Shown here piece after piece: positions 21,956 to 46,576 of a stretch of 64,000 nt of DNA (its first letter is position 1; the number at the start of each line of letters is the position of its first letter). The DNA lies in assembly GCA_045803545.1 (NCBI GenBank), contig JBJMOW010000005.1, positions 896,001-960,000 on the forward strand, given 5' to 3'. Under the pieces are notes generated by a model. That model made no database searches and had not been told where the DNA came from. It was given only the letters and a program-made list of their open reading frames with translations. Position numbers and translations under genes: made by a program. Source of the stretch: Gemmatimonadaceae bacterium (GTDB taxonomy: Bacteria > Gemmatimonadota > Gemmatimonadetes > Gemmatimonadales > Gemmatimonadaceae).

Positions 21956-23302
21956 CTACCCAGCCAGACAGGCCTGGCCGGTTCCGTCGGAGACGGTATT
22001 CGCCGGATCGTTCGGATTGCGCGACCCGTTGAATCCCTGTCCTGCGGGCGGAATGTTGGTGTTCGTGAAGCGCTCGTTCGGATCGTAGTACATGCGACCG
22101 GGCATCTTCTGTCCCGCCTGAGTCGGCGCGAAGTTCGGAGTGCACGTGCGCTTGTAATCGTTCCACGCTTCGTGACCGAGCTGGAAATCGGCGATGTACT
22201 TCTCGGTCAGGATCTCATTGAGCAGCGCCTGTCCAGCGACTGCTTCGGGAGCCAGTCCGTGGTTGTCGCGCTCTTCGTTCAGCTTCGCCAATGCCGTCAC
22301 CTGATCGCCGGTCCGATAAGCCGCCTCGGCCCAGATCAGAGTGTTTTCATCGTACGAGACGAAGGTCTGCGGATAATTCGGAGCCAGCCTCGTTCCACTC
22401 AGGTTCGTCGCCGCGCCGTTGAAATAATCCTGGCGCCGCGGGTCACTACGCGTACTGAGCAGACTCACGAACTGCGGGTCCGGGATCAGATAACCACCGC
22501 GCCCGATCGTCAATTGGAACTGGTAGTAGAAGTTCGTCTCATTGGTGTTGCTGGTGAACGCGCCGAAGTAGTTCCCCGCGTCGGAGCTGATTCCCTGCTC
22601 CGCCTCGGCGAGCGCCGCCGCGTACGCCGCCTGTCCACGAACCTCCGCCGTGTGCATGTAGAATCTCGCCTTGAGCGTGTGCGCGAGCGCAGTCCACGCG
22701 TCGGTATCGCCGCCATAGACCAGGTCTGAAGCCACCGGCGGCGAATTCGTCTCCGCGGTGCTGGCCATATTGGCGATCGCTGCCGACAACACTTTCTGCA
22801 CCGAATCGTAAACCGTCAGCTGATTATCAAGCGGCGGGTTTAGTTCGTTGGTCAGCGCGTGCGAGTAGACGATGTCACCGAACAGGTCAGCGCCGGTTCC
22901 CATCGTGAGCCCTTCCTGTACCTGCAGGATGCCGAGCATCGCAAAGTTGTTCGCCTCCTTCGCGAGATTCTGCGCGCGCACGATGTCAACGAGACCACCG
23001 GCAGCGTAGAGACCGATGTTGAACCCGCTCTGAATGCCTTCGTCGTAGAGGTAGTTGTAGATGCTTTGGTACTGGTTCTGACCGCCGGCGAACTGACGCG
23101 CCCACATGCCCGTTACGCGCGCCGGATCGCTGCCGAGCAGCGCCCAAATGGCCCCCTCTGCGCCGGCGAACAACTGATTAGCCGTCGCAACTTGCGGCCG
23201 ATTCGGATCGTTGCTCAGATCCCCGCCCGTCAGATAATCACCTTTGCAGCTCGTCGCCGTCAGCCCGACGACAACGAGCGCGAGATATCGAAGTTTTATC
23301 AC
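21956..23302 (-). CDS. SusD/RagB-family outer membrane lipoprotein
   Basis: Lipobox ATSC, DPNRP, DLFGDIVYS, AHTLKARFYMH, EAWNDYKRT; downstream of SusC. Confidence 0.9.
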   Translation of the reverse strand: MIKLRYLALVVVGLTATSCKGDYLTGGDLSNDPNRPQVATANQLFAGAEGAIWALLGSDPARVTGMWARQFAGGQNQYQSIYNYLYDEGIQSGFNIGLYAAGGLVDIVRAQNLAKEANNFAMLGILQVQEGLTMGTGADLFGDIVYSHALTNELNPPLDNQLTVYDSVQKVLSAAIANMASTAETNSPPVASDLVYGGDTDAWTALAHTLKARFYMHTAEVRGQAAYAAALAEAEQGISSDAGNYFGAFTSNTNETNFYYQFQLTIGRGGYLIPDPQFVSLLSTRSDPRRQDYFNGAATNLSGTRLAPNYPQTFVSYDENTLIWAEAAYRTGDQVTALAKLNEERDNHGLAPEAVAGQALLNEILTEKYIADFQLGHEAWNDYKRTCTPNFAPTQAGQKMPGRMYYDPNERFTNTNIPPAGQGFNGSRNPNDPANTVSDGTGQACLAG

Positions 23303-23318
23303 TGCAATTCTCCTTTCG

Positions 23319-26300
23319 TTATCGGTTTAGGCTGAACGACAACACGAACGACCGCGACTGCGGATTGGCGAACCAATCGAGTCCCTGAGTGAGGTACTCT
23401 GCACCCGCGTTGTTCACTTCCGGATCGAGCCCGCGATACTGCGTCCAGGTCTTCAGGTTGCGACCCGAGATGCGGATGTCCGCCGAGCTGAATCCAGTCA
23501 GGTTCTTCAGGAACGGCCGATCGAGCGTGAAGCTCAGACTCAGCTCACGCAGCTTGACCCAGCCGGCGTCTTCCATGAATTGCTCGCCAGGACCCGTGAA
23601 TCCGCCGCCAGTGCCGACGATGCTGAGCCAGTTCTCCCAGTCCTCTGGCGTATTGAGGCCGACGACTCCAGTGCCGGGACCCGCGACGTCCGGATACGCC
23701 TTCGTATCCCAACTGACGCCGTACTGGCCGGTGCCGCCGCGCGCATCGGTGTCCTTGTGAGTACCAAAGACGTAGAGAGCGCCGCGAGTACCGTTGTATT
23801 GAGTGCCGCCCTTTTTGACATCGAGCAAGCCGGACAACGTGAACTTGTTCAGAATCTTGAGCGATGACGAGTAGGACATGGTGTACTTCGGATGCGGATC
23901 ACCGATGACCCTGATCGCTGGATCAGCGACCGGTAGGCCGTCCGGACCGAGGAACAGCGCGTTTCTCTTATATCCGCCGGGTGTTGCGCCGCAGAGAGCA
24001 TCGATGTCCTGATCCGCTGCGCCCATGCCCGGCACCGCGATGTGGGTTCCCGACCCGCAGTGCACGAAACCGGTGCCGATGATGACGCCCGGTGCGTAAC
24101 CAATCACGTCAGCGCCTTCAGCTTCGTTCGCGCCGAATCCTTCCAGCAGATCGAAGATCTCAGCGCCGCCAAGATCAGTGACCTTGCCGCGGTTGCGGCC
24201 GAACTGCACGCCGAATTCCCACGCGAGATTCTGCGAGGTGTAGGGGCGGGCGTTGAACGAAACCTCGATTCCCTTGTTCGACAGCGCGGCGGTATTCTCG
24301 AACGCGCTGAGGAACCCGGTCGCGGCCGCGTTCACCGTGATCGGAAGAATCACGTCGGACGATTTCTTGTTATAGCCGACGACCGACAGATCGACCTTCT
24401 GATCGAAGAAGCCGAGATCCGCGCCGACCTCGAACTCTTTCTGCAGCTCGGGACGCAGCGCTGGATTGCCGATCCTGGTGCTGCTGGTGACGCCCGGCAC
24501 GCCGCCGACCGTGGTGCGCAAAACGTCGCCGTAACTCGACCCAAACTGCACGACCGTGCTCAATGCATTGAGCGCTGCGTACACGTCCGGCTCGCGCCCC
24601 GTTTCGCCATACGCTGCGCGCAACTTGCCGAAACTGAACAAGCCGGTCGGCTCAGATCCGTGGAACAGATTGCTGAACGTCCAGGCCGCCGACGCTTTCT
24701 TGAAAGTGTGACGACGCTGTGAAGCTCCGAACGTCGAGAATCCGTCGTTCCGCAAGCCGGCGGTCAGGTAAATCTGGTTGTAAAGATTGAACTCACCTTG
24801 CCCGAAGTAGCTCTCGATGTGACGGAGCGACTTGTTCTCGATGGCCGCCTGCGAGATGGTGTTCTCGAGCGCAAGCGGAGTAGGCGCGATCAAGCCTTCA
24901 CCAACCGTCGTGTGTTGCCGATAGCGACGTGAGTTCAGGTTTTGACCGACCGTGAAGGTCGTGTTGAAGTTCTCGCCGCGATCGAAGGTCGCCGAGGCAA
25001 GCAGGTTGTGATCGATGATCAGGTTGTTCTGATCGTTGCGAATGACGTTACCAGCGCCGTCGTTCGCCGAGGTTTGCGGCAGCGCCTGGAGCCGTGAGTC
25101 GGTGTAGTAGTCGCCACCGATCGTCTCCTTTACGTTCAGCCACGTCAGTGGATGCCAGTCGACGTTGAAGTTGGAGATGGCGCGCCCGACTTCATCGCGA
25201 TTGCCGTTGCTCGAAGCCACGAAGAACGGATTGTCGTAATACGCGCAGCACCCGAATGACTCGACTGTCGTCGCATTCGGGAATCGATAGCTGCGCTGCT
25301 GGCCGTACTGATTGAGGTACGGCTCGTTGTTGAACGCGGGCGGCGTTCTGAGCGCGCCAAGCAGCAATCCGGAAACGTCGTTGCCGCGCTGCACGAAATT
25401 GCCACGCGCATCGACGTAATTGAAGTTGCCACCAAGCGTAAGCTTGCTGCTGACTTCCTGAGTGCCCTTGAGGCGGAAGCTGGCGCGATTGTACTTGTTG
25501 TTCGGCCCCTGGATGATGCCGTCCTGATTGGTGAGACCGACGGACGAGTAGAACGTCGTGCGATCGTTGCCGCCAGAAAGCTGAATGTTGTTATCCGCAG
25601 TGAGACCTGTTTTGAACAGCTCACTCAAGTGATCGTAGGTCTGCGTGCCCGCGGGCAGTTTCGCGCCCCACGATGTACGACCGGCCGTAGGTGCGCAGTC
25701 AGGCGTGTCACCGCAGGTCGCCATCGCATCGGGAATCGGTCGCGGATCCCCGTTTGCGTTTGTGCGCGCCAGCGAGCCCTGTGCGTAATCGTGCTGCAGG
25801 AAGTCGACGAGACGAGGTTTGTCCCACGACAGCGTCGAGCCAACGCTGATACGGGTTGGTCCGCTGCGACCACGCTTGGTCGTAATCAGTATGACACCGT
25901 TCGCGGCGCGCGCACCGTAGATCGCTGCTGCCGCCGAACCCTTGAGGATCTCGATGCTCTCGATGTCGGACGGATTGACGTCAGCCGCGCGATTGGTTGT
26001 TACCGTGCCACCCTGCCTGTCGGTGACTGAGCCGCTGCCGACACCAATCGCCATCGTTGCCGGCGACACGGTCTGGTTGTCGATCGGCTGGCCATCAACG
26101 ACGAACAACGGCTGGTTGGTACCGGTCAGTGACGCTTCGCCGCGGATGACGACCGATGCAGCTGCACCGGGCTCACCCGACTGAGTGCGCACGTTCACGT
26201 TCGGCGCTTTGGCGGCGAGCGCAGCAATCACGTTTTGCGGCTCGTTGGACCGACGCAGCGCGGAGCTGTCGACGCGATTGATCGTCACGCCCAGTCGCTC

Positions 26301-26687
26301 GCGTGTTGTCGTGGTTCCGGCGCCGGTCACCACGACTTCGCCGAGGTGGAACGGATTCACCGGCAGGGTGAAGTTCTGGTTGTTCGTTGCTCCGGGCGTG
26401 AGCGCAATCTGAACCGAGCGCGCGGTGTAGCCGATGACGCGCGCGGTCAATGTCGCGGTGCCGCCTGTCGCTCTGCTCGACGGAACGATGAAGGTGTAAC
26501 TGCCATCATCGCTGGTCGTGGCGCCGATGTTGGTACCGGCGAGGAATACGCTCGCGGCACCGAGTGGCGCACCCACATCGCTCGTGACACGGCCGGTCAC
26601 GGTCGTTCCGCTTTGCGCGAACGCCGCCGATGCCGTGAATGCGAGTGTGGTGACGAATGACAAGAATTGTCTTCGCATACAACTCAC
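23319..26687 (-). CDS. SusC/RagA-family TonB-dependent receptor
   Basis: QPLFVVDG, DIESIEILKGSAAAAIYGARAANGVILITTKRG, VKLRELSLSF, GLDPE. Confidence 0.95.
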   Translation of the reverse strand: MSCMRRQFLSFVTTLAFTASAAFAQSGTTVTGRVTSDVGAPLGAASVFLAGTNIGATTSDDGSYTFIVPSSRATGGTATLTARVIGYTARSVQIALTPGATNNQNFTLPVNPFHLGEVVVTGAGTTTTRERLGVTINRVDSSALRRSNEPQNVIAALAAKAPNVNVRTQSGEPGAAASVVIRGEASLTGTNQPLFVVDGQPIDNQTVSPATMAIGVGSGSVTDRQGGTVTTNRAADVNPSDIESIEILKGSAAAAIYGARAANGVILITTKRGRSGPTRISVGSTLSWDKPRLVDFLQHDYAQGSLARTNANGDPRPIPDAMATCGDTPDCAPTAGRTSWGAKLPAGTQTYDHLSELFKTGLTADNNIQLSGGNDRTTFYSSVGLTNQDGIIQGPNNKYNRASFRLKGTQEVSSKLTLGGNFNYVDARGNFVQRGNDVSGLLLGALRTPPAFNNEPYLNQYGQQRSYRFPNATTVESFGCCAYYDNPFFVASSNGNRDEVGRAISNFNVDWHPLTWLNVKETIGGDYYTDSRLQALPQTSANDGAGNVIRNDQNNLIIDHNLLASATFDRGENFNTTFTVGQNLNSRRYRQHTTVGEGLIAPTPLALENTISQAAIENKSLRHIESYFGQGEFNLYNQIYLTAGLRNDGFSTFGASQRRHTFKKASAAWTFSNLFHGSEPTGLFSFGKLRAAYGETGREPDVYAALNALSTVVQFGSSYGDVLRTTVGGVPGVTSSTRIGNPALRPELQKEFEVGADLGFFDQKVDLSVVGYNKKSSDVILPITVNAAATGFLSAFENTAALSNKGIEVSFNARPYTSQNLAWEFGVQFGRNRGKVTDLGGAEIFDLLEGFGANEAEGADVIGYAPGVIIGTGFVHCGSGTHIAVPGMGAADQDIDALCGATPGGYKRNALFLGPDGLPVADPAIRVIGDPHPKYTMSYSSSLKILNKFTLSGLLDVKKGGTQYNGTRGALYVFGTHKDTDARGGTGQYGVSWDTKAYPDVAGPGTGVVGLNTPEDWENWLSIVGTGGGFTGPGEQFMEDAGWVKLRELSLSFTLDRPFLKNLTGFSSADIRISGRNLKTWTQYRGLDPEVNNAGAEYLTQGLDWFANPQSRSFVLSFSLNR

Positions 26688-26867
26688 TCCTTGAGTGTGA
26701 TGTTCGGAATGTGAGAGTGAGCGCAGGCGTGTAAAAGACTTTTTGCAGTTCCGAACTGGTTAAGGAGCTGTGCGCGATTTTTTACAAATCGCATACATGG
26801 CGGGCGCGTAGTAACGCAGGCGACCCCGCGTAACGCATCATATCTTCTCACGTACACCCGTCATTAC

Positions 26868-28613
26868 ATGTCACTGATCCGTCGTATGCGAGCATACGGA
26901 GCCCGCCCGCTGCTGCTCGGCGGGGCGCTTCTGGGAATCGTCGTGGTTGCGGGACTCGCGGCACTGGAGTCACACCGCACCTTCGTCGCGCGCAAAGCGT
27001 CCGCCGAACAGACGGTGCGCGATTACGCGAAGTTCGCGGCGTACCTCTATTCGACCCGGATCTATCTGTTCGCGCGCGAACGAACCTTCATGCCGTACGC
27101 GAAGTTCAACGCCGACGACCCGTACACGCGTGCCTCCCTGCCGCCGCTTTCTGCGATCCCCGCGAATACAGATTCGACGGAGAAGTGCGGACCAAACTGG
27201 ACCACTTATCGATTCCGCCTTGATCTACCGTCGGGCACGGTTCAATACCTGGGCGTTCGACCTCTGCCCGCAGTGGACCGGGCCATTCGCGACACGATCC
27301 CAAAGCTCGCCAACTCGCCCTGGGTCAAGCTCTCCGGATTCGGATACCTCTTCGTCGACCCACCGGGTGCGCCGAGAGAAGCGATTTCATACCTGCGAAC
27401 ACTCGACTCCGCTAAGAACGTCATAGCGGTTTACGGCTACCGGTCCTGCTACGGTGTGCGCGACACCATTGACTACGCGACCGTGCACAGGATCGTAAAG
27501 GTTTTGCCGCCAATGATCCCGGGGTATGGGGACTCTGCGTCGGATGCCCCCTCGGCGTGGTGCAAATGCGGCCCGAAAAAATCGGGAACCAGGAACGCCT
27601 CGGCCATGGAGCGGATGGCTGGCCCCTGGCCAAACGGCATGCCGGCGGATTCGCTACTGTATTTGAAGATCACTGACTTTCACGACCGCACCTTGTACCA
27701 GGTGCCTGCGCGCGGGAAATCTTCAGACTTGTACGGTGTCTCGCCCATCGGATACATCGGGGGCGTCTGGGTATGGGTCTCGTTGCGACCGGACGTCGCA
27801 AGGTTCCTCGTCGCCGGCGGCATCCCCGAGTCCCACGTCCCTGCGTCACTGGTGCTGTTCGGGGGCGCCATTGTGCTCGCAATCGCCGGGTTCGCTTCGC
27901 TGCGCAGTGAGGTCCGCCTCGTGCGGTCGCGAGAGCGGTTCCTGGCCAACGTCTCTCACGAGCTGAGGACCCCGCTCCAGCAGATCCTGCTCTTCGTCCA
28001 GCTGGTGCGGCTTGGCCGAACAAGGAGCGAAAGCGAGAAGGAGAAATCCCTCGAAATCATCGAGCGGGAGACGAATCGGCTGATTGCGTTGTCTAATTCC
28101 GTATTGACGGCCACCTCGACACCGGAGATGCAGCAACTGGAGTCGAGCGCGGTCGACGTCGCGGGCGTAGCACAAACGGCGGCGGATTTCTTCACACCTC
28201 TCGCGGAAGCTCGCAAGATGCGGATTGAACTGGACGTGGAGCAGCCGGCGGTTGCGCGCGGCGATCCGGGCGCGATCCGGCAGATCCTGATCAACGTGCT
28301 CGACAACGCCGCGAAGTACGGTCCGACGGGCCAGACGATCAAAATCGGTGTTCGCAAGAACGGGCCGATTGTCCGCTTATGGGTCGACGATCACGGCCCC
28401 GGGATCCCGCTCGCCGAGCGTAACAATGTCTGGCAACCCTTCGTAAGGCTGGGAGGGACAGTGGACGACAGCACCGGGGGGGCCGGACTCGGCCTCGCGA
28501 TTGTGCGCGACCTGGCTGCGGCGATGGATGCCCGTGCTGAGCTATCCGACGTCCCCGGGGGAGGCACCCGCTTCTCGCTGGATCTACACGCGAACCAGAA
28601 TGGGGCTCACTGA
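26868..28613 (+). CDS. Membrane sensor histidine kinase
   Basis: Two TMs, H-box VSHELRTPL, N-box NVLDNAAKY, DHGPGI, GAGLGLAIV. Confidence 0.92.
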   Translation: MSLIRRMRAYGARPLLLGGALLGIVVVAGLAALESHRTFVARKASAEQTVRDYAKFAAYLYSTRIYLFARERTFMPYAKFNADDPYTRASLPPLSAIPANTDSTEKCGPNWTTYRFRLDLPSGTVQYLGVRPLPAVDRAIRDTIPKLANSPWVKLSGFGYLFVDPPGAPREAISYLRTLDSAKNVIAVYGYRSCYGVRDTIDYATVHRIVKVLPPMIPGYGDSASDAPSAWCKCGPKKSGTRNASAMERMAGPWPNGMPADSLLYLKITDFHDRTLYQVPARGKSSDLYGVSPIGYIGGVWVWVSLRPDVARFLVAGGIPESHVPASLVLFGGAIVLAIAGFASLRSEVRLVRSRERFLANVSHELRTPLQQILLFVQLVRLGRTRSESEKEKSLEIIERETNRLIALSNSVLTATSTPEMQQLESSAVDVAGVAQTAADFFTPLAEARKMRIELDVEQPAVARGDPGAIRQILINVLDNAAKYGPTGQTIKIGVRKNGPIVRLWVDDHGPGIPLAERNNVWQPFVRLGGTVDDSTGGAGLGLAIVRDLAAAMDARAELSDVPGGGTRFSLDLHANQNGAH

Positions 28614-29362
28614 TGACACAACCGACTTCCTCCTGGCAGCCGTCACACAACGGAGACGCGGCGCCCAGCCGCAACATTCTGATCGTCGAAGACAACGAGA
28701 CGCTGGCGTTTGGTCTGCGCACCAGCCTCGAGGTTGAAGGCTACGAGGTTGAATGCGTGAGCGATGGCAACGTCGGCCTGGAGTGGCTGACCGATCACAC
28801 GCCGGATCTGATCGTCCTCGACCTGATGCTGCCCGGTCTCAACGGCTTCGAGGTGCTCCGTCGCTATCGCTCCAACGGCGGCAATGCCGCCGTGCTCATT
28901 CTCTCTGCGCGTGATCAGGAAGTCGACAAGGTGCAGGGATTCCGGATTGGCGCCGACGACTACGTGGTCAAGCCGGTCGGCGTGCTCGAGTTCCTGGCGC
29001 GCGTGGAAGCGTTGATGCGCCGGGTGAGCACGCCCGCGCGTGGGGGAGATGCGGGCCGAGGTGCGCTGCATCGCTTCTCCGACGTCGTCGTCGATTTACG
29101 CACGCGCACGGTCACGCGTAGCGGAAAGCAGGTCGATCTGAGCCCGATGGAGTTCGATTTTCTGGCGTACCTGATCGAGTCTGGTGGCGACATCGTTTCG
29201 CGCGACACGCTGATGCAGCGCGTCTGGCGCTACACCACCGGCGTCACTTCACGCACGGTCGATCAACACGTTGCTCGGCTGCGCAACAAGCTCGAGCCGG
29301 ATCCTGCGCAGCCTCGCCATCTCATTACTGTGCGCAAGGCTGGCTATCGCTTTCAGCTGTAA
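28613..29362 (+). CDS. OmpR/PhoB-family response regulator
   Basis: LIVEDN, LDLMLPG, GADDYVVKP, SRTVDQHVARLRNKLE, TVRKAGYRF. Confidence 0.95.
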   Translation: MTQPTSSWQPSHNGDAAPSRNILIVEDNETLAFGLRTSLEVEGYEVECVSDGNVGLEWLTDHTPDLIVLDLMLPGLNGFEVLRRYRSNGGNAAVLILSARDQEVDKVQGFRIGADDYVVKPVGVLEFLARVEALMRRVSTPARGGDAGRGALHRFSDVVVDLRTRTVTRSGKQVDLSPMEFDFLAYLIESGGDIVSRDTLMQRVWRYTTGVTSRTVDQHVARLRNKLEPDPAQPRHLITVRKAGYRFQL

Positions 29363-29386: not shown

Positions 29387-29938
29387 TCACGCCCGCCGGT
29401 GATAATAGAAGTCGTACTCGGTCCTCCACGTTTTTCCGCCGTCACTAGATAACTCCGAGTGCTGGCGAACGGTGTCCTTGTCGACCGGCGTGAAGGTCAG
29501 TCTGATTGTCGTCTGCGTTGAACCGGCCGGCTTCCAGAAAAAGACCAGGCTCTCACCGTCGCTCTGACTCTCACGGTACTCGTGGACATCTCCGTCGGAG
29601 CCAATCCAGAATTGCTGCCATTGCTTAAGACGGGGACTGTAGGAATTGAGACTCTTTCCAGTTCCACCCTTGGCGCCGGTCCAATTCTCCAGCACCGCGC
29701 ACCCGTTACTGGTGCTTTCGATGACACTGTCGCCGACATGGGTGCCGTCTTCGGTTTTGACATCCCACGCGCCGATCCAGAAGTCAAAGCGATGACGTTC
29801 AGGATCGTCCGCGCACGAATAGGGTGCGGCGGTCGAGTTAACCGCCTGACTGGCCGAGCTGGAGCTCGCCTGCGCAAAGGTTCCTTGGCCACCGAGCAGC
29901 GCAAACGCCGCGAATGTGAGTCTGATCGTTAATCTCAT
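29387..29938 (-). CDS. Secreted hypothetical protein (DUF1579-like beta fold)
   Basis: Signal peptide; FDFWIGAWDV ... SSDGGKTW; AGGAG upstream of ATG 29938. Confidence 0.75.
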   Translation of the reverse strand: MRLTIRLTFAAFALLGGQGTFAQASSSSASQAVNSTAAPYSCADDPERHRFDFWIGAWDVKTEDGTHVGDSVIESTSNGCAVLENWTGAKGGTGKSLNSYSPRLKQWQQFWIGSDGDVHEYRESQSDGESLVFFWKPAGSTQTTIRLTFTPVDKDTVRQHSELSSDGGKTWRTEYDFYYHRRA

Positions 29939-29970: not shown

Positions 29971-30047
29971 TCCGCCGAGCAAAGCGAAGAAACGCTCGGG
30001 TTGATTGGGGTACTCTTAGACATCGGCACATCGCTTTGCTCGGCGGA
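29971..30047 (-). ncRNA. Candidate guide RNA: perfect 17-bp stem enclosing a 36-nt TIGR-like unit
   Basis: TCCGCCGAGCAAAGCGA (29971-29987) pairs with TCGCTTTGCTCGGCGGA (30031-30047); the 43-nt loop on the minus strand holds TGCCG-atgtctaag-AGTACCCCA-atcaacccg-AGCG; starts 22 nt after the stop of the Nop/IS110-like gene. Confidence 0.5.
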
Positions 30048-30069
30048 TATCCGAATTAGTGCAGGGTGG

Positions 30070-30945
30070 TTAGGCGGTAATCCTCGGGTGATACGGGCGC
30101 ACGATCGGCAGGTTCAAAGACTTTCGCCACGCAATCCATAGGTTGCGGAGGAAAGCCTTCTCCATTTTTCGGAGCGCGGCGAGATGACTGCGCTTGGCGG
30201 TCCAGCCCTCCCTTTCGGTCGCCAGCCTCTCACGCTCGGCGTCGTAGTAGGTTCGGTAATCGCTTCCGCAGCGCAGCATCGAGACGCCAATCAGATAGCA
30301 TGACTTCCGAGCATGCGCATCGTAGCTGTTGCGACCACCGACTACGCTGCGGCGGGGCGCCACGCGCGTCGTATCGTCGTTAATCAGCTGCAGATGGCCG
30401 CTGCACAGACGCGAGCCGGCGCGGGTGAAGTGCGTGTCACCCAGCTTGTAGCCCGCCGGCATTCCGACCTCGAGCTTGCAGCGCGGGCACTGATAAGCGT
30501 TGCCGGGGATGGTCGCGAGGCCACAGTACGCCCAGAACGCGGACGGCGTTTTTGCGCGAGTGACATCGAGCCGGGATAGAAGTCGCGCGGCAAGCAGCTC
30601 GCCGACTCCACGTTGCTCCGACATCCATTGCCACGCCGGATGAGAGTCGATCGATGAGCGCAGCGCCACTGCGGCATCGTTCTCGTCTTCGCTCGCGCGC
30701 CAATACGCTTTCTCCAGAACTCGTGGTGCGCCGGCAGTTTCTCCGCGCGCGATGACCTTCAGCAGCGAGTCAGCATCACCCGCGATGCTGCCAACTCCAT
30801 CGAACGAGCGACCCTGAAAGAGCGCCCGCAGACGCTCGCCATGGGCGATGCGCGAGCGCTGCGCATCCTCGTAGAGCTGATATAGCAATCGGAGGTCGTG
30901 CGCGGCCTCGTTCGAGTCGGACAAGCGCTGAAGTGATGTCGCCAT
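30070..30945 (-). CDS. Nop/IS110-Tnp-domain protein lacking the DEDD/RuvC domain (TasA-like), with a zinc-ribbon-like insert
   Basis: Coiled coil LRLLYQLYEDAQRSRIAHGERLRA, HhH-like HPAWQWMSEQRGVGELLAARLL, SAFWAYCGL, YRTYYDAERERL, ALRKMEKAFLRNLW; no N-terminal GxD-type nuclease domain; CPRC-x15-H-x8-C-x2-H insert. Confidence 0.75.
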   Translation of the reverse strand: MATSLQRLSDSNEAAHDLRLLYQLYEDAQRSRIAHGERLRALFQGRSFDGVGSIAGDADSLLKVIARGETAGAPRVLEKAYWRASEDENDAAVALRSSIDSHPAWQWMSEQRGVGELLAARLLSRLDVTRAKTPSAFWAYCGLATIPGNAYQCPRCKLEVGMPAGYKLGDTHFTRAGSRLCSGHLQLINDDTTRVAPRRSVVGGRNSYDAHARKSCYLIGVSMLRCGSDYRTYYDAERERLATEREGWTAKRSHLAALRKMEKAFLRNLWIAWRKSLNLPIVRPYHPRITA

Positions 30946-31031
30946 GCTGATGATTTGGTGTTGGTCCAGGCAACGCTACAGCGCGGCACGCACTCACAGT
31001 GTTTACGTCCAGTAAAGTTTTGGCAGCGGTG

Positions 31032-46509: not shown

Positions 46510-46576
46510 AGCGGGAAGCGGGAAGCGGGAAGCGGGAGGCGGGAGGCGGGAAGCGGGAAGCGGGGAGCGGGCAGCG
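46510..46576. repeat. Heptamer tandem repeat (RGCGGGA) x9 plus partial copy
   Basis: AGCGGGA x4, GGCGGGA x2, AGCGGGA, AGCGGGG, AGCGGGC, AGCG. Confidence 0.95.

Follow-up and report, generated by a model that had tools for sequence, protein, structure and literature searches.

The DNA considered here is a stretch of 64 kb (the window) from a Gemmatimonadaceae bacterium with a genome of 3.7 Mb (positions 896,001 to 960,000 of contig JBJMOW010000005.1, assembly GCA_045803545.1). It carries a gene of the tasA type, here called tas (30070..30945, reverse strand), which starts with ATG and encodes a solo-Nop Tas protein of 291 amino acids. The gene is followed on the same strand by a hairpin RNA (29971..30047), recognised by its fold, conservation and covariation, which is a candidate single tigRNA-like unit. 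Both are present in one copy in the genome, and they are discussed here as possible parts of a ribonucleoprotein (RNP) whose RNA is fixed. The loci of relatives are labelled L and the genomes of the genus G.

The only Pfam match of the protein is Transposase_20, the C-terminal family of the IS110 insertion sequences (IS), with 24.4 bits over residues 112-145. No match to the DEDD/RuvC domain (PF01548) was found in the 291 residues. The NCBIfam model NF052498 (TIGR_Tas_endo) reaches 239.7 bits at a cut-off of 100 and its complete profile is covered (1-215 of 215), and the IS110 transposase model NF033542 stays below threshold with 20.7 bits at a cut-off of 140. A profile of 26 homologues (alignment A1) matches TasR (9mty, E = 1.4e-17) and TasH (E = 5e-6) in the PDB, IS621 being absent from the matches. 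This agrees with the comparison of an AlphaFold2 model of the protein (predicted local distance difference test, pLDDT, 75) by Foldseek, in which the ten best matches are TasR and TasH chains (E = 8e-7 to 2e-4), with IS621 (E = 8e-3), ISCro4 (about 1e-2) and Nop5 (about 0.1-0.6) lower down. These comparisons, and the listing of the clade in a published catalogue described below, place the protein among the Tas proteins, which combine a coiled coil with a Nop-type RNA-binding domain; Pfam finds no nuclease family, neither RuvC nor HNH, as is characteristic of the TasA subclass. On sequence evidence the protein is thus of the TasA type, a nuclease-free, solo Nop-domain Tas protein. The product name of NF052498, "RNA-guided endonuclease", is a misfit for this protein and for most of its close relatives, in which the nuclease domain is absent.

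The polypeptide can be divided into a coiled coil (residues ~15-101), a helix-hairpin-helix segment equivalent to the first C-terminal domain (CTD1, ~105-147), a CCHC zinc-ribbon insertion (148-205) and the CTD helices (206-276). The coiled coil begins so close to the N-terminus, at about residue 15, that a nuclease domain could not be accommodated. The insertion, 54 residues long and rich in beta structure, is situated between the WAYCGL segment and the next helix, and its residues C153, C156, H172 and C181 are invariant in alignment A1. In the profile alignment TasR has only about 7 residues at this site, which in PlTasA is occupied by "hairpin A" according to a comparison made by eye from the printed PlTasA sequence and the published residue numbers. 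Y217 is aligned with Y238 of TasR, an aromatic residue at the DNA-unwinding junction that is stacked onto the first paired guide base; Y217 and R225 are both invariant among the 26 homologues. The chain ends 6 residues after the invariant Y285 with no conserved histidine behind it, showing that the Tyr/His loop, which processes dual-repeat tigRNAs, is missing. A short CTD5 without the Tyr/His processing dyad is characteristic of the stem-loop-binding class of Tas proteins, all of which lack this loop according to Xu et al. (bioRxiv 10.64898/2026.09.09.750476).

The protein is predicted to form a homodimer with a score of 0.53, compared to 0.00 for the best of three controls, although solved Tas dimers exist and an effect of likeness is possible. 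Of 30 proteins solved as same-chain pairs, 20 reached the mark used for a dimer, compared to 1 of 23 solved as single chains. The prediction runs agree in at least 59% of the contacts, the partner has a pLDDT of at least 78, and the predicted interface is formed by the coiled coil, at residues 20-38 and 74-94.

A word-indexed protein search yielded 390 homologues. The 120 of these that were listed are 62-92% identical, have 216-338 residues, are named hypothetical or "transposase" (the latter name is carried by relatives in several public records) and come from Gemmatimonadaceae or Gemmatimonadota. The homologues of roughly 290 residues have the N-terminus MA[TI]SL... in common, so the start of the open reading frame (ORF) is intact, and 104 residues are invariant among the 26 homologues. 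When the profile was searched exhaustively, 3961 cluster representatives matched at E <= 1e-3, of which 88 reached E <= 1e-30; the best 150 of the 3961 have mostly 200-350 residues. Species-representative genomes contain 42 loci with true relatives (L010-L051). A further set (L052-L087), on contigs of metagenome-assembled genomes of Longimicrobiales, consists of multi-copy genes that align to the helix-hairpin-helix segment alone (residues 87-146, 36% identity) and are probably true IS110-family elements.

The protein clade itself is not new. Table S1 of the paper by Faure et al. 2025 (PMC12045711) contains two of its peptide motifs at least 31 and at least 63 times, which makes at least 94 motif-bearing rows; the rows displayed all carry the label node15165, so the clade is already part of the published Tas catalogue. 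The main texts of Faure et al. 2025 and Xu et al. 2026 mention neither "Gemmatimonad" nor "two-component" nor "zinc", and no report linking TIGR-Tas with Gemmatimonads, or TasA and tigRNA with two-component systems (TCS), was found in the collection of papers searched, although the supplements of Faure et al. and of the preprints may annotate the RNA of the clade. Undescribed in the literature found are the single hard-wired hairpin, the zinc-ribbon "wedge", the vertical single-copy inheritance in free-living soil Gemmatimonadaceae and the recurrent link to TCS genes.

The hairpin starts 22 nt beyond the tas stop codon. Its 5' arm (30047-30031) and 3' arm (29987-29971) are 17 nt long and fully complementary, enclose a loop of 43 nt (30030-29988), and form the only perfect arm pair longer than 11 nt between 28500 and 33000. 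Folding of the tas strand gives -42.9 kcal/mol (z = -3.54), a stability equalled by 1 of 200 shuffled sequences. The structure was examined further in 84 distinct hairpin sequences (alignment A3), from which all stem, loop and covariance-model figures below are derived. The 14-pair stem is 97.1% paired in these variants and 10 of its 14 pairs show double compensatory changes. None of 500 stem shuffles equalled the observed values, and sliding one strand by 1-3 columns lowered the pairing to at most 39%. In L094 and L114 the inner stem CTAACCG/CGGTTAG is exchanged for TAATTGG/CCAATTA. The stem cells hold 63 G.U or U.G pairs and only 4 A.C or C.A combinations; the helix therefore works on the tas strand only.

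The loop is strongly conserved: 22 of its 43 positions are invariant and another 7 are at least 90% conserved. The near-invariant core, AUGUCU followed by three variable nucleotides and AGnnnCCCAAUCAACCCGAGCG (29993..30023), contains UG, AC-CCA and CG, which by eye resemble box D, the loop repeat with box C, and box D of published stem-loop tigRNAs, the PlTIGR units. Variation is confined to 2-5 nt behind AUGUCU, 2-4 nt behind GAGCG and 1-3 nt beside each arm, the last of which covary and lengthen the stem. Relatives differ by loop insertions and deletions of 1-2 nt, which excludes a coding constraint. Synonymous variation within tas is unrestrained, the mean codon entropy being 1.4 bits (1.1-1.8 in 12-codon windows), and no local dip of synonymous variation that would point to a guide embedded in the coding sequence was seen in the 63 coding sequences compared. 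Two further features were noticed in the loop: an imperfect direct repeat, TCACCCAA/TCAACCCGA, found by eye, and a UGUCU/AGWCA mini-hairpin, which is perfect in TTTTG variants only and is not counted as support.

The occurrence of the RNA follows that of the gene. The core CCCAATCAACCCGAGCG is present within about 20-65 nt of the stop codon in 27 of 27 genome loci whose protein is at least 56% identical, and in 0 of 15 loci at 46% identity or less. Hairpins are also listed near relatives of 36-46% identity outside clade 2 (described below), where chance stems are numerous because the DNA is GC-rich. Metagenome contigs scanned with the RNA motif alone, ignoring the gene, gave 95 stretches; 80 were fetched, and all 80 hold one motif. 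In 76 of the 80 the motif is preceded, at a distance of 28-82 nt, by the end of a tas homologue in the same orientation, and the remaining 4, having less than 110 nt of upstream DNA, are unjudgeable. With a covariance model, every one of the 7 tas-bearing genomes of the genus gives a single match, and the other 34, G024 among them, give none. The sense sites score 74-101 bits, compared to an antisense echo of 26 bits in two genomes; the window site scores 76.7 bits and is the only one in its genome. No Rfam family matches the RNA. No intrinsic terminator or sigma-70 consensus promoter was found on the tas strand, the hairpin being without a U-tract. Comparative evidence of this kind indicates that the hairpin is a conserved RNA of the tas strand, far beyond chance.

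What the first-pass annotation had seen at this locus is borne out by these results: the 291-residue ORF with its intact start, the segments of IS110 C-terminal type lacking a DEDD/RuvC domain, and the perfect 17-bp stem. Its assignment of the protein to the Tas/Nop-only group as opposed to the decayed IS110 transposases is upheld as well. Its expectation that a flanking RNA would be conserved holds in 27 of 27 close genome loci and 76 of 76 judgeable metagenome loci, with covariation.

Soil metatranscriptomes contain one contig of 258 nt covering 29972-30157, that is, the 3' end of tas and the whole hairpin, which differs from the window at two bases, both in the variable triplet. The metatranscriptome runs are kept as contigs (shares of 0.05-0.09), and uncovered parts are uninformative.

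Upstream of tas there is a promoter-like block, TTTAC-N6-TA[AG]ACA ... TGTAGCGTT (30972..31016, reverse strand), that is conserved in relatives. In most loci of clade 1, for example L016 and L017, TGTAGCGTT is the 5' arm of a hairpin in the 5' untranslated region (UTR; AGCGTT...AACGCT, with UUCCAA in the loop), of which the subclade of the window (30946-30980) has only a short GTTG/CAAC version. A similar motif, TTTAC-N6-CATACA (26781..26797, forward strand), is found 87 nt upstream of the neighbouring kinase gene, where it is conserved in relatives. The combined pattern TTTAC-N6-[CT]A[ATG]ACA has four matches in the genome, two of which are those 71 nt upstream of tas (31000-31016, reverse strand) and 87 nt upstream of the kinase gene, although the pattern was fitted to these two sites and the count is not independent. 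As a lead from sequence, an OmpR-type regulator may bind this direct-repeat-like motif and control both tas and the kinase operon.

A natural allele without tas is found in G024 (L186, G024:C161, 290-520). Here the kinase orthologue and the gene of a small secreted protein are kept, and a block of the tas type, TTTAC-N6-TAGACA, directly precedes the latter gene. No remnant of the RNA was detected at this locus, the promoter block alone being alignable. The tas gene and the hairpin thus behave as a unit that is inserted or deleted between the promoter of the locus and its gene.

The genes around tas are of ordinary chromosomal types: a Kelch-repeat protein, a SusC/SusD-like pair, an ATP synthase subunit, a ligase, PQQ dehydrogenases and the TCS genes. 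No phage or IS genes were found in 18-45 kb of the window, and no close relative of the protein in viral contigs (2 loci at 27-32% identity only) or in plasmids, which upholds the non-phage context given in the first-pass annotation. Directly downstream of the hairpin lies the gene of a small protein with an N-terminus resembling a signal peptide by eye and without a Pfam family (29387..29938, reverse strand). It co-occurs with tas in G014, G021, G027 and G010 and is probably co-transcribed with it. Next, in convergent orientation to tas, come an OmpR-type response regulator (28613..29362, forward strand; Response_reg and Trans_reg_C) and, on the same strand, a HisKA/HATPase_c sensor histidine kinase (26868..28613). 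The SusC-like TonB-dependent receptor and SusD-like lipoprotein (21956-26687, reverse strand) are divergent from the kinase gene; TonB-dependent receptors also follow tas in clade 2 loci and in L041. Heptamer repeats AGCGGGA (9.6 copies) are present at 46510-46576 and are also listed for the 3' flank of L022, and the similar GCGGGAA occurs in runs right behind the tas stop codon of a relative (L003/L010).

The association with the two-component genes is recurrent. The tas locus has the same syntenic place in relatives, and an OmpR-type regulator, a HisKA kinase or both lie downstream of tas and the hairpin, convergent with them, in 13 of the 14 clade-1 loci scanned; in the fourteenth (L033) the kinase orthologue is 1.5 kb away on the same contig. 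Orthologues of the kinase (E <= 1e-229) are found in 8 of the 41 genomes of the genus, and 7 of these 8 carry tas and the RNA. Among more distant relatives, 9 of 15 adjoin TCS genes of other types (a LytS-type kinase, LytTR regulators, an OmpR/HAMP pair). The genome of the window has 52 receiver-domain and 54 HATPase_c matches in its 3.7 Mb, and by a rough estimate about one place in ten would be equally close to such a gene.

The hairpin can be compared to known guide units. In our parsing of the PlTIGR units printed in Table S1 of PMC12045711, a 7-8-bp stem encloses CCA, N9, CG, (A/G)(T/A)AC, CCA, N9 and CG. A post-hoc parse of the window RNA along these lines reads stem-CGA, N6-8, UG, 12 nt (UCUnnnAGUCAC), CCA, N11 (AUCAACCCGAG), CG, N3-5, stem. 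Clade 2, a second clade of the protein with 40-44% identity (L043-L046 and L048), has a conserved hairpin of its own behind tas that parses alike, as stem-CGA, CCCCAAAC, UG, GAAGAGUCGCCC, CGA, N11, CG, G, stem, with different segment sequences. The marks that recur among the parsed hairpins are AC-CCA, UG and CG. In clade 2 there is an apparent operon consisting of a LytS-type kinase, a LytTR regulator, tas, the hairpin with a 40-nt loop, a stand-alone LytTR-domain protein and a TonB-dependent receptor. The window contains no tandem repeats whose period would suit an array, and the loop, being near-invariant, does not contain two variable spacers of 8-12 nt flanked by box C (CNA) and box D (YG). 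The RNA may therefore be called tigRNA-like with the reservation that the parse is post hoc and that the array and the variable dual spacers are not found. The enlarged loop and the enlarged wedge insertion would fit the co-variation of protein and RNA described by Xu et al.

The loop hardly varies, and the few variable bases beside the stem form pairs among themselves, so that the RNA is hard-wired and not programmable, and a programmable array system is not supported. In this respect the first-pass annotation, which had proposed a programmable module of 36-nt units with variable 9-mers and one or a few guides, has to be revised: no such unit was found, and there is strictly one hairpin per locus (in all 80 metagenome loci and all 27 close genome loci, with one covariance-model match per genome).

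Sites complementary to the loop were sought in several ways, all with results at chance level, although with segments of only 9-11 nt a target may have escaped these searches. In the own genome the loop k-mers give 24 matches of 12 nt and one of 14 nt, and the two best of the loop matches fall within the genes of an ABC-ATPase and an outer-membrane protein. Dual-spacer targets, with one part on each strand and a gap of at most 12, number 13 compared to 4-27 for shuffled loops, and a search based on the parse (TGTGCCGA and ATCAACCCG, gaps of 0-5, at most 1 mismatch each) gives 0-2 matches per arrangement, none of them perfect. No conserved loop 8-mer or longer word is common to the 3-kb flanks of 18 loci, and no second copy or complement of the loop was found in 5 tas-bearing genomes. 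Targeting of the tas promoter by the loop was considered and rejected, because complementary runs reach at most 5.9 nt on average when loop and promoter are of one locus, compared to 5.5 nt in cross-locus pairs and 5.3 nt in shuffles (59 loci), and the match of GTGAC..GTAGACA in the promoter to the loop is only apparent, as it does not covary. The 5' UTR was likewise rejected as a target or partial copy (identity over 6.24 nt in own pairs and 6.15 nt across loci; reverse complement 5.58 and 5.49 nt).

Our interpretation of the locus, to which we would give a probability of roughly 0.55, is that a TasA-class protein and one cognate, hard-wired hairpin RNA constitute a single-copy chromosomal module within a TCS locus, and that they form a fixed RNP acting as a sequence-specific regulator. 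The promoter-like block would give rise to a single transcript covering tas, the hairpin and, in loci that have it, the gene of the small secreted protein, as suggested by their strand and spacing and by the empty site in G024. TasA would dimerise through its coiled coil, as in the predicted model. The dimer would then bind the hairpin, with the zinc-ribbon wedge sitting in the enlarged loop and the box-C/D-like CCA, UG and CG serving as anchors, a step suggested by knowledge of the family, by the perfect co-occurrence of gene and RNA and by selection at the RNA level. Finally, the fixed RNP would use invariant segments of the loop, such as AUCAACCCGAG, to recognise a single conserved site in a nucleic acid, and would act as a steric regulator; alternatively, it might act in cis on its own transcript. 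TasA proteins do bind adjacent stem-loop RNAs and repress transcription according to Xu et al. (bioRxiv 10.64898/2026.09.09.750476).

Several observations count against this interpretation. The searches described above produced no target, and the loop is invariant where guides would be expected to vary. The unit is asymmetric, with a single perfect CGA-N9-CG interval, and would be passed over by the TIGRFinder rule, which asks for two perfect boxC-N9-boxD intervals separated by no more than 15 nt; moreover, its stem-adjacent bases pair with one another and leave about 5 free nucleotides on the 5' side ahead of UG. L094 and L114 have other bases in place of CGA at the end of the stem, so that it is dispensable, and the CUU processing motif is confined to the subclade of the window. 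The dimer prediction may have passed owing to likeness with the solved Tas dimers. The 258-nt contig attests presence in an RNA library, where carry-over of DNA is possible, and contigs show neither strand nor ends. The TCS association may come partly from the shared ancestry of the loci.

A more specific form of this interpretation, possible and put forward tentatively, is that free-living soil bacteria have domesticated a single-guide TasA RNP as an RNA-guided transcription factor, which is vertically inherited, wired into two-component signalling (its promoter shares the direct-repeat box with the kinase and regulator operon) and aimed at one conserved chromosomal site, beyond the resolution of searches for short matches.

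The best-surviving rival, itself rather unlikely, treats the hairpin as nothing more than a cis-acting mRNA element, namely a stabiliser at the 3' end or between cistrons, an RNase processing site or a regulator of read-through, and at most an autoregulatory site for TasA, which would be independent of guides or use another RNA. An invariant, single RNA for which no target was found would be natural under this explanation, as would its position between tas and a co-directional gene, and long stems are typical of processing and stability elements. In G024, moreover, the promoter block drives the co-directional gene without tas or the RNA. However, 22 invariant single-stranded loop positions far exceed the needs of a stabiliser hairpin, and the hairpin is kept in L012, L014 and L016, where no co-directional gene follows, and is never seen without tas. 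The absence of a U-tract means that it is not an intrinsic terminator, and the conservation of the DNA-unwinding-junction residues in the protein is also at odds with such a role.

That the loop is a site in DNA and not an RNA, for example a cruciform or an operator bound by the adjacent response regulator, is very improbable. The tie of the locus to a TCS and the imperfect direct repeat in the loop could be taken to favour it. However, the stem covaries, the excess of G.U over A.C combinations implies pairing on one strand only, the covariance model discriminates sense from antisense, and the element is missing from the G024 locus, which has the TCS and lacks tas. It is hardly credible that the locus is a now functionless, decaying remnant of an IS110-like or TIGR-bearing mobile element, as might be supposed from the sole Pfam match, the name "transposase" given to relatives in many databases and the patchy occurrence in the genus (7 of 41 genomes), since the ORF is intact with its length kept in ~390 homologues and 104 residues unchanged among 26 of them, purifying selection on the RNA is strong, the single copy has a constant syntenic place, and no IS ends, repeats or RuvC domain were found.

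TIGR-Tas systems were described in 2025 and, in the published accounts consulted, their natural role is unknown, their arrays come from phages and bacteria of the candidate phyla radiation (CPR), and their natural spacer targets are mostly undeterminable. The present clade is usefully reduced in this regard, with one protein and one invariant RNA that are chromosomal, syntenic in many soil genomes and tied to signalling genes. Together with the tas-less allele of G024 it supplies a well-defined pair for comparison, in which the cellular function of a nuclease-free Tas RNP could be addressed. A fixed RNP would mean that a Tas system is able to dispense with its array and turn into a permanent factor of the host, in parallel to box C/D small ribonucleoproteins (sRNPs), which the discoverers of TIGR-Tas put in the same evolutionary series. 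Should the domesticated transcription factor be real, it would be the first cellular, non-defence role of TIGR-Tas and would provide a fixed guide-target pair for testing the natural function of the family.

Among known systems, those closest to the present one are the TIGR-TasA systems of the stem-loop type, namely BlTasA, MbTasA and PlTasA, the last from a Peromyscus gut contig (PMC12045711; bioRxiv 10.64898/2026.09.09.750476; Guan et al. 2026, bioRxiv 10.64898/2026.08.11.744272). Both have a solo Nop-domain protein in which a coiled coil is present, a nuclease is absent and the C-terminus is short, lacking the Tyr/His loop; a same-strand hairpin beside the gene with a large loop containing AC-CCA ... 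CG and UG; an insertion at the site of "hairpin A" in PlTasA and of the wedge loop in other Tas proteins; and the aromatic and basic junction residues. However, there is one unit here and 2 to 13 or more tandem units there, the loop has 40-43 nt compared to 32 nt in the PlTIGR units, the putative spacer segments are invariant across the clade, and the wedge is a CCHC zinc ribbon of 54 residues. The host is a free-living soil bacterium with a syntenic single-copy locus beside a TCS and not on a phage or CPR genome.

The dual-repeat systems TIGR-TasR and TasH (TaTasR, 9MTY; SpTasH, 9W04) provide the best sequence and fold matches to the coiled-coil/Nop core, and a dimer through the coiled coil is predicted here, perhaps owing to likeness. 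The present system has neither a RuvC nor an HNH domain, and 36-nt dual-repeat units, the Tyr/His processing loop and an array are all absent from it. The arrayless compact TasR branch (Xu et al. 2026) also consists of Tas proteins without a detected TIGR array; its members are viral, bear RuvC and lack both the coiled coil and intergenic space, whereas here the locus is chromosomal and the coiled coil and a conserved RNA are present. With the IS110/IS1111 elements (IS621, 8WT6, with bridge or seek RNA) the system shares a homologous RNA-binding domain and one structured RNA beside the gene. It differs from them in the absence of the DEDD/RuvC domain, the sub-threshold score with the IS110 model, the single copy, the lack of element ends and terminal repeats, and an RNA that is one hairpin and not a two-loop bridge RNA.

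Compared to the archaeal box C/D sRNP, the fold match to Nop5 is weak, the RNA belongs to no Rfam family, and neither fibrillarin nor L7Ae is among the neighbours scanned with Pfam. Nevertheless, a Nop-domain dimer that holds one RNA and directs fixed guide segments to conserved targets is the nearest functional analogy for an invariant guide.

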